Assembly (NCBI RefSeq): GCF_044647545.1
Contig: NZ_CP172818.1
Direction: 5' to 3' (one strand)
Origin: Escherichia coli
GTDB taxonomy: Bacteria; Pseudomonadota; Gammaproteobacteria; Enterobacterales; Enterobacteriaceae
Length of the DNA: 64,000 nt
Shown: positions 32,939-49,749 of the stretch, in pieces
Layout: every line of letters starts with the position of its first letter
How positions within the stretch are numbered: the stretch's first letter is position 1
The notes under the pieces: model-generated
What the model was told of the DNA's origin: nothing
The model's database searches: none
What the model saw: the letters and a program-made list of their open reading frames with translations, nothing else
Made by a program: the position numbers and the translations under genes

Positions 32939-33105
32939 GTCGCCAATCCTGGAAAGAGTATTAAGCGTAAATGATGCCAGATCGCAAAGCGTTCAATGGT
33001 TTGAGTAAGGGGCAAAACAGGCGGGATTTAGGGCGTTTGCTGCCAAAAATAGATAGTGATGCGTTTAGTCGGATGCGGCGTTTTCGCTTATCACGCCTCA
33101 AAAAA

Positions 33106-33188
<83 letters not shown>

Positions 33189-35315: not shown

Positions 35316-36176
35316 TTAATCCTTACTTAGCGCATACACCGTCTGACCACGCAGCGTGAAGCGGCGCTCAAGGTGGCTAAAGTTTTCAGAGTGACCCGCA
35401 AACAGCAATCCGTCGGGTTTAAGGAGCGGAACAAAGCGGCGCAAAATCTCCTGCTGGGTAGTTTGATCGAAGTAGATCATGACGTTACGACAGAAGATCG
35501 CATCAAACGGCCCCGGCACGGTGTACTGTTTCGCCAGTAAATTCAGCGGGGCAAAATCAACATAGTTCGCCAGCTCCTGACGCACGCGTACCAGCCCTTC
35601 ATGCGGTCCCGTCCCTCGCATGAAATACCGTTGCAGTTGCTGCGGCGTCAGGTTTTTCAACTCTTCATGGCGATAAATACCGCTTCTGGCTTTTTCCAGC
35701 ACTTCGGTGTCGATATCGCTGGCAAACACTTTCCAGCGTCCGGGCACGGTGCCCAATGTGTCAGCCAGCGTCATCGCAATGCTGTACGGCTCTTCGCCGG
35801 TCGAAGCCGCCGCGCTCCATACGCGATACTCGCCAGAACGGCGACGTGCGTGATCCGCGAGCAGAGGAAAATGATGCGCCTCACGGAAAAATGCCGTCAG
35901 ATTCGTGGTCAGCGAATTGATAAACGCCTGCCACTCACCGCTGTGCTGATTAGATTCCAGCAAGTTCAGGTAATGACCGAAATCCGTCAGTCCCAGCGAA
36001 CGCAAACGACGAACCAGTCGGTTGTAAACCATGTCGCGTTTATGGTCGGCCAGGACGATCCCGGCTCGTTGATAGATCAATTGACTTATCCGCCGAAAAT
36101 GCGCGTCGGAAAGCGCCAGGCGCTCGGTCATCTGTAACAATAAAGACGTTTGCCCACAGGGCAGAGATGAAGTCAT
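35316..36176 (-). CDS. cheR: Chemotaxis receptor methyltransferase, 286 aa
   Basis: [40 protein letters not shown]... Confidence 0.97.
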
Positions 36177-36194
36177 AGCGCCTTCTCAATCACT

Positions 36195-37796
36195 TCAGGA
36201 TACCACTGGCGCAATTTGTAACTGCGCCGACTCATGTCGTGCTACTTCATGCTCTTCAAGGGTAAATACCGCCACGCGCGACGAAAGATGGTCGGCCTGA
36301 TTCGCCAGTTGTTCTGTTGCCACCGCCGCTTCTTCTACCAGGGAGGCGTTCTGCTGTGTCACCTGATCCATCTGGCTGACAGCCTGTGCAACCTGCTCAA
36401 TCCCCCGCCGTTGTTCTTCCGAGGCCGAAGCAATTTCTCCCATAATGTCGTTCACGCGGGTCACCGAACTGACAATATCAGTCATGGTCGCGGCGGCGTT
36501 ATTCACCAGTTTCGAACCCTGCTGGACACGATTGACTGACTCTTCGATCAGCCCTTTGATCTCTTTTGCTGCCTGGGCGCTACGGCTGGCAAGATTGCGC
36601 ACTTCACCTGCCACTACCGCAAAACCACGCCCCTGCTCTCCGGCGCGAGCCGCTTCCACTGCCGCATTCAGGGCCAGAATATTGGTCTGGAAAGCAATGC
36701 CGTCGATAACGCTGATAATGTCGCCAATTTTTTGCGAGCTGGTGGCGATCTCCTGCATGGTGTGAGTCATGGTACTGACCTGAACACCGCCCGCCTGTGC
36801 CGTTGTCGCGGCATTTTTTGCCAGTTCCGACGCCTGGCGCGCGTTATCGGCGTTTTGCCCTACCGTGGCGGTTAATTGCTCCATACTGGCGGCCGTTTGT
36901 GCCAGCGATGCCGCCTGCTGTTCGGTACGACTTGAGAGATCGTTATTGCCTGCGACAATCTCCGCGATACCAATGTGCATCTCCTGGCTTCCCTTACGCA
37001 CATCACTTACCGTCCCACGCAAAGCCTGCTGCATGGTCTTCAGACTGGCAAAAATGGCGGTGATCTCATTGCGACCATACACCGCAATCGGACGCGCCAG
37101 ATTACCCGCAGCAATGCTGTCAAAATGGCTACCGATAATGGCCAGTGGTTGAACAATCATCTTGCGCGTCCACCACAGCGCACTGCTGATGTAGATCGCC
37201 GCAACAATAATCATGCTGATAAACACCAGCGCCGAAATCTGATAGTTACGCTGGCTTTGCGCACTGGCAGCTTCCAGCACATGGTTGATCTCCAGCTGCC
37301 AGGCCTCAAAGTTAACGTCAAACGCATTCTGTGATTCCTGCACCGGCGCAGTGAGGAAATCCGAAAGTTGATTACTTTCAAGCCAGGTCGCCTGATGTTC
37401 GAGATCGTTGTGCCAGCGGGCAAAACTTTTCTCCGTCTCTTTTTGCAACGCCCTGACGTGCTCGTTGCCCGCAGTCATCGCCATAAAACTTTTAAACAGC
37501 GTGGTGGATTGCGTCAGACTGGCGCGCGCCGTCGTCATCAACGTTTTAATGTCATCCGCCGGATAGCTAAGCGCCGTCAGAGTGCCCGCTTTGTTCAGCG
37601 CGGTACTGGCCTGTAACATTACCGCCCGAGTTTGCGCTAAAGCCGCACGTTGCTGATTGCTCTGCTCGACCTGATTCAGTCGTTGCACATCGTCGCGAAA
37701 TGCCCAAAAAGACATGCCGTTACTGCCAATCTGCAAGATCCCGCAGAGAATCAAAATTAAAAACAGCGTGGTCGAAATTCGAATACGATTAAACAT
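36195..37796 (-). CDS. tap: Methyl-accepting chemotaxis protein IV (dipeptide/pyrimidine sensing), 533 aa
   Basis: MFNRIRISTTLFLILILCGILQ...; MCP signalling domain; lies between cheR and tar. Confidence 0.93.
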   Translation of the reverse strand: MFNRIRISTTLFLILILCGILQIGSNGMSFWAFRDDVQRLNQVEQSNQQRAALAQTRAVMLQASTALNKAGTLTALSYPADDIKTLMTTARASLTQSTTLFKSFMAMTAGNEHVRALQKETEKSFARWHNDLEHQATWLESNQLSDFLTAPVQESQNAFDVNFEAWQLEINHVLEAASAQSQRNYQISALVFISMIIVAAIYISSALWWTRKMIVQPLAIIGSHFDSIAAGNLARPIAVYGRNEITAIFASLKTMQQALRGTVSDVRKGSQEMHIGIAEIVAGNNDLSSRTEQQAASLAQTAASMEQLTATVGQNADNARQASELAKNAATTAQAGGVQVSTMTHTMQEIATSSQKIGDIISVIDGIAFQTNILALNAAVEAARAGEQGRGFAVVAGEVRNLASRSAQAAKEIKGLIEESVNRVQQGSKLVNNAAATMTDIVSSVTRVNDIMGEIASASEEQRRGIEQVAQAVSQMDQVTQQNASLVEEAAVATEQLANQADHLSSRVAVFTLEEHEVARHESAQLQIAPVVS

Positions 37797-37841
37797 CAAC
37801 GCTCCCCATCAGGCGGCAATGACCGCGTTAGTAAATACTCG

Positions 37842-39503
37842 TCAAAATGTTTCCCAGTTTGGATCTTGTTCAGCAATTCGCAGTCGTGGCTGTGCCGGTG
37901 GTTGCTCACTGGCAGGACGGGATGGTGTTTGCGGTTTATTGGTGAGTGGGCTGGCTGTCAGACGGAACGCGGAAACCGCTTGCGTTAAACGACTCGCCTG
38001 TTCTTCCAGCGCAGCTGCGGCGGCAGCTGATTCCTGCACCAGCGATGCGTTCTGTTGCGTGACGCGATCCATTTCCGAAACCGCCAATGCGACTTGATCG
38101 ATGCCACGGCTCTGTTCATCCGATGCTGATGCAATCTCGCCCATAATGTCAGTCACGCGGGTGACAGCATTGACGATATTGTTCATTGTTTCCCCGGCGC
38201 TTTCGACCAGCACCGAACCGGTATCAACGCGCGAGACGGAGTCTTCAATGAGGGCTTTGATCTCTTTTGCCGCCTGGGCGCTGCGACTGGCAAGATTACG
38301 CACTTCGCCCGCCACCACGGCAAAACCACGGCCTTGTTCACCCGCTCGCGCGGCTTCAACCGCGGCATTCAGCGCGAGGATATTAGTCTGGAAGGCAATA
38401 CCGTCGATAACGCTGATAATGTCGGCAATTTTCTTCGAACTATCGGCGATCTCATGCATCGTTTTCACTACGCCATCCACCACTTTGCCGCCGTGCTGGG
38501 CGGTGTCGGAGGCACTTTGCGCCAGTTGCGAGGCCTGGCGGGCGTTATCGGCGTTTTGCTTCACTGTCGCGGTGAGCTGCTCCATGCTGGCGGCAGTTTC
38601 TTCCAGCGCGGATGCCTGCTGTTCAGTACGGGAGGAAAGATCGGTGTTGCCCGCCGCAATTTCACGGGTACCGGCATAGATGGCATCTGAACCTTCGCGC
38701 ACATGAGTGACGGTGTCAGTCAAAGAGCGTTGCATATGTGAAACACTCTGCGCCAGGTCGCCCATTTCACTGCGCCCGTCAATGGTCAGGGTATTCGCCA
38801 GGTTACCACCGGCAATTTCGCGAATATGCGCAATAATTTTTGCCAGCGGTGTAAGCAACATACGGCGAATGCCGTACCACGCCACCAGCAGAATCAATAT
38901 CACCACCAGCGCGATAACCGCCAGTTGCCACTGGGCAAATCGGTAATCATCTGCGTTGTCAGTGACGATATCGCGATACAGTTTTTCACTGCTGAGGGCG
39001 TACTGAGCAAACGCTTCGCCCATTGCATTTTGCATTCCCTGGGTTGGCTGAGCGAAATAAGCTCCAGTATTGCCATAATCAAGATAATCAATCAGTTCAG
39101 TTAACGCTGTGTGATAGTTTTTATATTTTTCATCAATATTACGACTGGTAGCGACCATTTCAGGTAACGGTGCCATGCTTTTGAATTTTTTATAATGCGT
39201 CGCTGCCTGGGCCAATGTTTTCCTGGCGCTATCGAGCAATTCAACTTTGGCATTACTTTGCTGATTGGATGAATCCATCATCATCCGCACCGCTGAACGA
39301 CTCAGGTTAATGCGCGTTTGCAGCATTAAATCCCATGTAGACGTCAGCTCGCCCTGCTGTTCCCGTAATTGATTGGAAACCACAAAGCTCTTCTGGCTAT
39401 GGTGAAGGGAAGAAAAAAACAGACTGCCGGAAATAAGCTGTAACAGTGCGAATACCCCCAGCACCATTACCAACAGCGTGACTACGCGGATACGGTTAAT
39501 CAT
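37842..39503 (-). CDS. tar: Methyl-accepting chemotaxis protein II (aspartate/maltose), 553 aa, C-terminal NWETF
   Basis: [23 protein letters not shown]... ending ...QDPNWETF; start at the internal ATG 39503. Confidence 0.95.
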
Positions 39504-39534
39504 AAGGCACCTTCCTGAAAACAAGTTGATCTCG

Positions 39535-39561
39535 TTATCGGCAAGGAAGGGGGAAACTTTA
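39535..39561 (-). promoter_or_regulatory. Sigma-28 (FliA) class 3 promoter for the tar-tap-cheRBYZ operon
   Basis: Minus strand reads TAAAGTTT, 11-nt spacer, GCCGATAA, matching the sigma-28 consensus, about 30 nt upstream of the tar ATG. Confidence 0.8.
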
Positions 39562-39592
39562 TTGCTGATGCCACCCGCCGCGAAATTGAAAT

Positions 39593-39621
39593 AAAAAACC
39601 CGATGCGCAGATCATCGGGTT
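39593..39621 (-). terminator. Rho-independent terminator downstream of cheW
   Basis: Hairpin cccgatg...catcggg followed on the minus strand by a T-run. Confidence 0.65.
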
Positions 39622-39647
39622 CATTTCAATTGAGGAAATCGGGAGAA

Positions 39648-40151
39648 TTACGCCACTTCTGACGCCGCGCTATCTAACAGCGCCATCTCTTCGCTGTTCA
39701 GCAGTTTTTCGATGTTCACCAGAATCAACATCCGGTCGCCCAGTGCGCCCAGTCCAGTGAGATATTCGGTTGAAAGCGTCACGGCAAATTCCGGTGCCGG
39801 ACGAATTTGCTCCGCCGTCAATGAAAGCACGTCTGAAACGCCGTCAACCACGATGCCGACCACCCGCTGTCCGAGATTCAGGACGATAACTACCGTGTTG
39901 TCGTTATAGTCCACATCCACCTGGCTGAACTTAATTCGTAAGTCAACAATCGGCACAATAACGCCGCGCAGATTCGTGACGCCTTTGATAAACGCTGGCG
40001 TGTTCGCAATCCGTGTCACCTGATCGTAGCCACGGATCTCCTGCACTTTCAGAATATCAATACCGTACTCTTCATCACCAAGGGTAAATACCAGAAATTC
40101 CTGGCCTGACGGCTCGCTGGCCAGCTTTGTTACATTCGTCATACCGGTCAT
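39648..40151 (-). CDS. cheW: Chemotaxis coupling protein, 167 aa
   Basis: [42 protein letters not shown]... Confidence 0.97.
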
Positions 40152-44077: not shown

Positions 44078-44656
44078 TTAAACAGCCTGTACTCTCTGTT
44101 CATCCAGCAGTTGTGGGATAATATCGGCAGGATTCTGGGAAAGTTTACGTCTTTTTACTGCCCGGGATGGCGGCTGACATAAGCTGCAGGCAAAGCTGCC
44201 AACAGGCTGGTGAGCGTGGGTAATAAAATTGCCGCCGCAGCAGTTGCAGCTGGAAAGTTGCAGTAATCCACTTTCAACAAACCGTACCAATGTCCAGGCA
44301 CGGGTTAATGCCAGCAGCGGTCCGTCTTCTGCTTGCGGGCACTGTTCAAGGTATAAACGGTAGGCTTTGATCACCGCATCGACGCCATTACACAAGCCGG
44401 TTTTCAGTAAAAACTGCCATGCGTTACAGAACATTGAAGCATGAACGTTTTGTTCCCAGGTCATAAACCAGTCGGTTGAGAATGGCAGCATGCCTTTCGG
44501 CGGTGGGCTTCCGCGTAGTTCTTTATAGAGTTTTATCAGGCGTCCGCGACTTAACTGTGTTTCGCTTTCCAGCATCTGCAAACGAGCGCCCAGGGTGATC
44601 AATTCCATTGCCAGCTGAATATCCCGCGCTTCCTGAACAATGCTTTTTTCACTCAT
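44078..44656 (-). CDS. flhC: Flagellar master regulator subunit FlhC, 192 aa
   Basis: [33 protein letters not shown]...; zinc-binding Cys cluster. Confidence 0.97.

Positions 44657-46396: not shown

Positions 46397-49749
<3,353 letters not shown>

Follow-up and report, generated by a model that had tools for sequence, protein, structure and literature searches.

Two adjacent chemoreceptor genes of Escherichia coli, tar and tap, which encode methyl-accepting chemotaxis proteins II and IV (MCP II and MCP IV), have been fused in the laboratory: Slocum, Halden and Parkinson reportedly obtained spontaneous or selected tar-tap deletions that gave hybrid transducers (1987; J Bacteriol 169:2938), and Weerasuriya, Schneider and Manson are said to have engineered Tar-Tap and Tap-Tar chimeras (1998; J Bacteriol 180:914). 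Here we compare these and other described systems with the tar-tap locus in a 64,000-nucleotide (nt) stretch of E. coli DNA (contig NZ_CP172818.1, assembly GCF_044647545.1), which we call the window and by which all unlabelled positions are counted, and with its counterparts in public genomes. Deletions that fuse tar to tap are rare in nature, recur, favour the longest blocks of tar/tap identity and persist in lineages, and we place considerable confidence in the overall explanation of which these observations form part. The natural hybrids resemble the laboratory ones in the genes involved, in the in-frame union of a Tar sensing half with a Tap signalling half, and, as far as these are reported, in the conserved cytoplasmic domain that makes such a fusion possible. 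The laboratory hybrids were made or selected in K-12, however, whereas the natural ones occur in wild isolates (pig, frog, human and others) and on many contigs.

Haemoglobin Lepore (delta-beta) and the red-green opsin hybrids offer an analogy, being likewise in-register fusions of adjacent direct paralogues in which the intervening DNA is lost and crossovers are confined to the conserved part. Those gene pairs, however, are 90-98% identical, recombine in meiosis and give reciprocal duplications, whereas tar and tap are 72% identical, cross over in blocks of 4-24 nt and yielded no reciprocal product in our searches. Deletion hot spots at short homologies in lacI were reportedly described by Albertini et al. 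in 1982, and a review by Lovett is said to cover slipped misalignment that is independent of RecA. As in lacI-type deletions, the endpoints at this locus lie in short direct repeats and the longest repeats are the hot spots, a likeness that fits both a deletion characteristic of phylogroup B2 (below) and the junctions in 4-11-nt blocks; unlike in lacI, the short repeats of tar and tap sit within a 670-nt homeologous alignment that keeps the products in frame and functional, so that what is observed has probably been shaped by selection. The laboratory hybrids, the conservation of the signalling domain and the tandem paralogy are already known, and natural, recurrent and mis-annotated fusions are a modest addition at the population level. 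Literature phrase searches on natural tar-tap fusions or hybrids, a scope that left aside the primary texts of Slocum 1987 and Borziak 2013, returned nothing relevant.

The two genes and the two copies of the direct repeat that they share are as follows.

36195-37796, minus strand: tap (methyl-accepting chemotaxis protein IV), 533 amino acids (aa), C-terminal end ...IAPVVS, without NWETF
37842-39503, minus strand: tar (methyl-accepting chemotaxis protein II), 553 aa, C-terminal end ...QDPNWETF
36293-36962: direct repeat, tap copy, comprising methylation-helix and signalling-domain codons; 72.2% identical to the tar copy at +1701 nt
37994-38663: direct repeat, tar copy, partner of the tap copy at 36293-36962

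We screened 5,426 complete E. coli genomes with an 800-nt fusion query that combines 400 nt from just outside each side of the repeat and whose pieces join only if about 1.7 kb is missing. The pieces were found joined in three genomes, ETEC4088 (pig, Belgium), ET474 (frog, China) and PEC389 (pig, Korea), each time with the predicted span of 1478 nt (800 + 678), which corresponds to a frequency of about 5 in 10,000 complete genomes. All three carry an exact, in-register deletion of 1701 bp that leaves a single 1608-nt gene, annotated as "tar", between cheW and cheR, with the surrounding che genes intact in every case. Each fusion contains a single clean switch from tar to tap, with none of 544 diagnostic sites discordant when judged against a panel of nine diverse E. 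coli genomes. The pentapeptide NWETF, present in Tar, is absent from Tap and from the hybrids. The crossovers fall in the following parts of the repeat, where the direct orientation of the copies and their spacing of 1701 nt allow short exact blocks to mediate in-register deletion.

36554-36733 (tap) and 38255-38434 (tar): most strongly conserved part of the repeat, with 85% identity across 180 nt, coding for the invariant block at the hairpin tip
36700-36723 (tap) and 38401-38424 (tar; tar nt 1080-1103): longest exact block, 24 nt, coding strand CGACATTATCAGCGTTATCGACGG
36841-36858 (tap) and 38542-38559 (tar; tar nt 945-962): second-longest exact block, 18 nt, coding strand GCAAAACGCCGATAACGC
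36886-36923 (tap): short identity blocks of 8 nt (36886-36893), 4 nt (36895-36898) and 11 nt (36913-36923), with tar partners at +1701

In ET474 and PEC389, which are identical to each other, the crossover lies in the 24-nt block, and in ETEC4088 it lies in the 18-nt block. These represent two independent events, one in each of the two longest identities, an outcome with p ~0.008 if crossovers were distributed in proportion to identical bases (42 of ~478). The complete-genome screen is the only unbiased set of fusions that we have, and it comprises these two events. The original prediction for this locus, a model's reading of the window's letters, had proposed that the repeats are a substrate for deletion or gene conversion forming tar-tap hybrids, and it had quoted one string from each gene to illustrate their similarity. 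Hybrids formed by deletion do exist, one of the two crossovers in complete genomes lying in the 24-nt block inside the quoted string, and more are present in draft assemblies; gene conversion is not supported (below).

Beyond these three genomes, 535-aa hybrids are present on roughly 130 other contigs, all annotated as plain "MCP II". In a large protein collection, exact copies of the two hybrid proteins of the complete genomes were found on 71 and on 28 contigs, always named MCP II, and a protein search returned nine further 535-aa hybrid variants. The hybrid protein P0002 has the same Pfam domain order as its parents (PF02203, PF00672, PF00015). DNA-level mapping placed the crossovers of draft hybrids at seven more loci. 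The 18-nt block was used on four flank backgrounds, those of ETEC4088 and of three further hybrid loci, with flanks that differ by 16-21 and 2-28 positions per ~2.2 kb. Crossovers in the short blocks of 4, 8 and 11 nt were mapped in loci L017, L018, L027 and L019; the 8-nt interval was used on two backgrounds, with a near-identical locus that switches 5 nt away, and the 11-nt interval was used once. If backgrounds are counted as events, five of eight would have occurred in the two longest blocks, in a set that is biased. Two points weigh against reading this pattern at face value. The protein search is biased in that crossovers nearer the 3' end fall in a 90% Tar cluster and are hidden there, so that the hot-spot pattern among drafts is not an unbiased one. 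In addition, the count of independent events depends on differences between flanking alleles, and later recombination could mimic that pattern.

The commonest natural lesion at the locus is a microhomology deletion inside tap in phylogroup B2, not recombination between tar and tap. Lane et al. in 2006 (J Bacteriol 188:5618) and Borziak et al. in 2013 (J Bacteriol 195:3596) reportedly described the loss of Tap in uropathogenic and B2 E. coli. That uropathogenic B2 strains have lost Tap is restated elsewhere (PMC3559539, PMC12623472). A whole-locus search of the complete genomes found both genes intact in 4,321 of the 5,426, and about 20% (B2, for example UTI89 and ATCC 25922) formed a class covering 63% of the query in two pieces, a size taken from coverage classes with the junction itself checked in UTI89. 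This 63%-coverage class was considered as a candidate tar/tap recombinant and rejected as such; in UTI89 (L001 1790-1804) it is explained by a 1374-bp deletion within tap that leaves tar intact. The deletion arms form an imperfect 15-nt direct repeat in the window.

36289-36303: left deletion arm, TGGTCGGCCTGATTC
37663-37677: right deletion arm, TGCTCGACCTGATTC; the 8-nt exact core common to both arms is CCTGATTC

A short remnant of tap survives in B2, where the annotation gives a partial, frameshifted coding sequence of 152 nt named "Tar ligand binding domain-containing protein". Like the fusions, this lesion is a deletion at the same locus that removes Tap function and keeps Tar; unlike them, it arises at an 8-nt microhomology inside tap, makes no use of the tar/tap repeat, and leaves Tar with its own NWETF tail. 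Other alleles of tap were also seen, including one in O103:H2 strain 129 (L012 196-1796) that is annotated as frameshifted (1601 nt) and one in another strain (L011 196-1800) with a 3-nt insertion (1605 nt), which indicates that Tap has been lost or altered by several routes.

The original prediction had further described tar and tap as tandem paralogues whose signalling domains carry long, near-identical DNA in direct orientation about 1.7 kb apart, and had called this the main internal repeat of the window. Its gene coordinates, the tandem paralogy and the direct orientation agree with equivalog matches and with the RefSeq annotation of an identical locus, and the two quoted strings are present on the plus strand at 36684 and 38385, identical at 41 of 45 positions and 1701 nt apart, which is also the in-register offset of the repeat. 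Moreover, tar/tap accounts for the only repeat families of at least 40 nt in the 64-kb window. The description of the DNA as long and near-identical, however, does not survive measurement, and the quoted 45-mer proves to be the best single spot of the repeat rather than a representative one. DNA identity on the +1701 diagonal is 72.2% over the 670-nt stretch, rising in the best windows to 83.5% over 200 nt, 90% over 60 nt and 96.7% over 30 nt; the longest segments are 246 nt at ≥80%, 180 nt at ≥85% and only 61 nt at ≥90%, and no exact run exceeds 24 nt, the next longest being 18 and 16 nt. A blastn comparison of tar with tap aligns 635 nt at 74.3% identity (E = 6e-112), so that the similarity is real and far beyond chance, and megablast of the same pair gives zero matches. 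An efficient recombination substrate would be expected to offer roughly ≥95% identity over several hundred base pairs, and the tar/tap repeat has no such stretch. By way of calibration, this is a 72% repeat, no more alike than unlinked paralogues are, and it should be taken neither for a hot recombination substrate nor for evidence of gene conversion.

The similarity is also unevenly distributed along the genes. In a codon-aware alignment Tar and Tap are 47% identical overall at the protein level, and the half encoding the sensor, transmembrane and HAMP regions has 30-50% DNA identity per 60 nt, which amounts to no similarity, compared to 58-88% in the cytoplasmic half, where the methylation and signalling domains are 76% identical as protein. 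The methylation helices and the MCPsignal domain make up the conserved stretch, which holds a 57-residue block that is identical in Tar and Tap. We took K-12 tsr and trg as paralogue controls, using the same alignment columns of the signalling domain. DNA identity is 77.7% for tar and the unlinked tsr versus 72.1% for tar and tap, the longest exact run is 28 nt versus 24 nt, and the excess of identical synonymous codons is z = 4.3 versus z = 3.8; identity is 70.6% for tap-tsr and 69.5% for tar-trg, much as for tar-tap. The greater likeness of tar to an unlinked gene than to its neighbour argues against a homogenisation specific to the tandem pair. Within the nine-genome panel, a small one, tar-tap identity is 71.2-72.1% in each genome, and 213 of 730 sites are fixed differences, where the tar alleles have no base in common with the tap alleles. 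Purifying selection on the protein produces the DNA repeat as a side effect, and homogenisation of the two neighbours is not its source. Tar and Tap are old paralogues whose periplasmic halves have diverged past recognition at the DNA level, and the cytoplasmic part is conserved because of its need to fit into mixed receptor trimers and to bind both CheA and CheW; retention of 76% protein identity in the cytoplasmic domains accounts for DNA identity of 72%.

Two further readings of these data carry very little probability. That ongoing gene conversion, or concerted evolution, between the tandem copies maintains their similarity is largely refuted and is in our estimation very improbable. It draws some support from the use of identical codons at identical residues in the tar-tap signalling domain, which exceeds the expectation from codon usage (83 observed versus 59.8 expected, z = 3.9), and from strain N8B7-2 of O157:H7, in which three neighbouring sites carry the base of the other paralogue and the exact run reaches 28 nt. 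The synonymous-codon test, the tsr/trg control and the nine-genome panel nevertheless led us to reject conversion as the source of the similarity: tar-tsr exceeds tar-tap in identity, in run length and in z; the nine genomes are constant at 71-72%, with their 213 fixed differences; shared polymorphisms in the panel are single and scattered, and none forms a multi-site tract converted in one direction; and no Tap with a Tar-type C-terminus was found among the E. coli proteins searched. The modest excess of identical synonymous codons (z ~3.8) and the O157:H7 cluster do leave room for conversion that is very old or very short. Concerning that cluster itself (L013), positions tar 1221, tap 1227 and tap 1233 bear the other paralogue's base, in mixed directions, and the polymorphisms (tar nt 1221-1249; the region of 38255-38283 and 36554-36582 in the window) extend exact identity from 16 to 28 nt, making this the longest tar/tap block of that lineage; it may reflect micro-conversion or coincidence. 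The other reading, that the hybrids in public data are assembly artefacts arising from collapse of the two similar domains, seems to us more improbable still. Many of the additional hybrids do come from short-read Logan contigs, and the odd mosaics P0138 and P0220, on metagenome contigs of at most 2 kb, look chimeric. Three hybrids, however, are in finished circular chromosomes from three laboratories, the same exact protein is present on 71 contigs in one case and on 28 in another, and every hybrid has one clean switch and an intact reading frame. Moreover, the longest tar/tap identity (24-28 nt) is shorter than the k of 31 that we understand to underlie the Logan assemblies, a difference that would make a mis-join in the graph unlikely.

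How the deletions arise is a closer question. We propose that the short identity blocks (24, 18, 16 and ≤11 nt) occasionally misalign and so yield the in-register 1701-nt deletion and a single 1608-nt gene, in which the Tar sensor, HAMP domain and first methylation helix are joined to the signalling tip of Tap and a tail without NWETF. Misalignment would probably proceed by RecA-independent slippage or annealing at short identities, as suggested by the junctions in 4-11-nt blocks, by flanks that are 28% diverged and by the B2 deletion at an 8-nt microhomology, and selection would then retain the in-register, functional products. A possible, though less probable, alternative is that the fusions stem from homologous (here homeologous) recombination by RecA and RecBCD, through unequal sister exchange or intrachromosomal pop-out, near the minimum efficient processing segment (MEPS). 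Both events of the unbiased screen are at the two longest blocks (24 and 18 nt, p ~0.008), the 18-nt block recurs on four flank backgrounds, and all events are in register, points that speak for such recombination. Shen and Huang reportedly placed the MEPS of E. coli at roughly 23-27 bp in 1986, which puts the 24-nt block right at the threshold, and the longest exact run is 24 nt in the window and 21-28 nt in other strains. The MEPS concept is documented (PMC1904282). Other junctions, however, use identities of 11, 8 and 4 nt, well under any MEPS, and the commonest deletion at the locus uses an 8-nt microhomology, which indicates that short-homology deletion is active here. In addition, mismatch repair strongly blocks RecA-mediated exchange at a divergence of 28%, the value for the flanks of these blocks. 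Finally, neither a reciprocal duplication nor a Tap-Tar product turned up in the genomes or the protein collection: a padded synthetic DNA query for the tar-[tap/tar]-tap array, of a design without a positive control, matched in none of the 5,426 complete genomes, and a search with a synthetic protein joining Tap(1-358) to Tar(361-553) found no E. coli Tap-Tar protein. The tap N-terminal region did show three extra "places" in the genome screen, which are more likely matches split by insertion sequences.

The consequences for chemotaxis can be anticipated from what is known of the tail that is lost. The NWETF pentapeptide tethers CheR and CheB (PMC3676780), and low-abundance receptors without it are poorly methylated and need other receptors (PMC3676780). 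Because both the NWETF tether and Tap are lost, we predict from sequence that the hybrids respond to aspartate and maltose, that they behave as low-abundance receptors whose adaptation relies on Tsr, and that the cell is left without dipeptide taxis. We give an even chance to a broader proposition, namely that wild lineages repeatedly and stably replace tar and tap by one Tar-Tap hybrid, formed through in-register deletion at a few hot-spot blocks, that goes unnoticed under the label MCP II, and that a related but out-of-register tar::tap fusion in Escherichia fergusonii (below) is widespread and possibly fixed. If this is so, the hybrids and the E. fergusonii fusion would be natural experiments on an aspartate receptor without the CheR/CheB tether. 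For specialists, the hybrids could serve as natural Tar variants lacking NWETF, and surveys of receptor repertoires should allow for at least three molecular origins of a "Tap absent" entry, namely a frameshift, the fusion of tar to tap and the B2 deletion within tap.

Several other rearrangements of these receptor genes were encountered. The Tar-like receptor of E. fergusonii (519-521 aa; P0072 and P0073; L020 3001-4560) is a tar::tap deletion fusion in which the body of Tar up to ...AFRLTA runs on into the final four codons of tap (PVVS*), followed by the tap-cheR spacer; it is represented by a cluster of 74 members and by 15 contigs. Contigs of this type have no NWETF and no tap, and they carry a fimbrial usher / SCPU gene upstream in place of cheW. 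Five out-of-register, in-frame tar-tap fusions (P0017, P0018, P0027, P0028 and P0135, of 771, 688, 656, 680 and 958 aa) are present on one or two contigs each; their protein sequences look like the outcome of illegitimate deletions of ~0.5-1.3 kb over the tar-tap boundary, with two partial signalling domains retained. In-frame tandem duplications were seen in P0029 (25 aa, at the Tar hairpin tip) and in two Tap proteins, P0137 (23 aa, in the sensor) and P0146 (13 aa), and these provide further evidence of slippage-type events in the two genes.

Chimeras with other receptors, or from other genera, were also observed. P0051 (536 aa, 15 members, 2.9-kb contig) combines a Tar N-terminus with a Trg C-terminus and switches at the same QNADNA block, and P0136 (550 aa, 5.4-kb contig) combines a Tap N-terminus with a Tsr C-terminus that has NWETF; their contigs are short, so that either protein may come from a chimera cloned in the laboratory or from a chimeric assembly instead of a rearranged chromosome. 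P0084, from another genus of Enterobacteriaceae, is 535 aa long and resembles Tar at its N-terminus and Tap at its C-terminus, and P0220, also from other Enterobacteriaceae, has a Tap-like sensor, an NWETF tail and an internal patch that is Tar-like relative to its sibling P0239. These three are on contigs of 2-3 kb and could reflect either paralogue recombination outside E. coli or chimeras of metagenome assembly.

Turning to the locus in the window, the Tap open reading frame (ORF) is a full-length match to the NCBIfam equivalog NF007309 (1182 bits, cut-off 903), and the Tar ORF is likewise a full-length match to NF011622 (1198 bits, cut-off 900). Pfam domains follow the same order in both proteins, with TarH (PF02203) at aa 1-167, HAMP (PF00672) at 209-260 and MCPsignal (PF00015) at 323-480 in Tap, and at aa 1-169, 212-262 and 325-482, respectively, in Tar. 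As judged from equivalog membership, the ligands would be aspartate and maltose for Tar, and dipeptides via DppA for Tap. The genome of FDAARGOS_497 is 100% identical over 36000-39700, and the RefSeq annotation of tar and tap there matches base for base. The genes cheR and cheB lie downstream of tap, and cheW and cheA lie upstream of tar. Features of the surrounding transcription unit are listed here.

39535-39561, minus strand: match without mismatch to a sigma-28 (FliA) class-3 promoter, TAAA-N15-GCCGATAA, upstream of tar
37797-37841, minus strand: tar-tap spacer, 45 nt
39596-39622, minus strand: hairpin with a trailing T run that resembles an intrinsic terminator, downstream of cheW, at the end of the upstream motAB-cheAW operon

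In the sigma-28 consensus scan the observed count of matches was reached in none of 100 shuffles, and we take TAAA-N15-GCCGATAA at 39535-39561 to be the promoter of the tar-tap-cheRBYZ operon. No promoter or terminator site was detected in the 45-nt spacer, which implies that tap is transcribed by read-through from tar. As part of the same overall explanation, we are thus confident that tar and tap are adjacent, co-transcribed chemoreceptor genes heading a sigma-28-driven tar-tap-cheR-cheB-cheY-cheZ operon. Two further near-consensus sigma-28 matches, with one mismatch each, are present in the window at 44121-44147 (minus strand), probably the promoter of the motA operon, and at 47526-47552 (plus strand).

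Elsewhere in the window, the spacer between flhB and cheZ contains an uninterrupted run of 44 adenines (33107-33150, context 33039-33150; T44 on the cheZ coding strand) that adjoins a hairpin downstream of the cheZ stop codon and is the only homopolymer of at least 12 nt in the window. This arrangement was found in none of the 5,426 complete genomes, and the site may be a genuine empty-site variant in which the A tract has expanded, or it may reflect an artefact of assembly or an edit. Typical E. coli have two palindromes resembling repetitive extragenic palindromes (REP) at this position, and the closest genomes (FDAARGOS_497, ST648 and ECONIH1; 99.9% identical on both sides) carry a 2.44-kb island there that encodes a dGTP triphosphohydrolase (dgt) and a 250-aa hypothetical protein.

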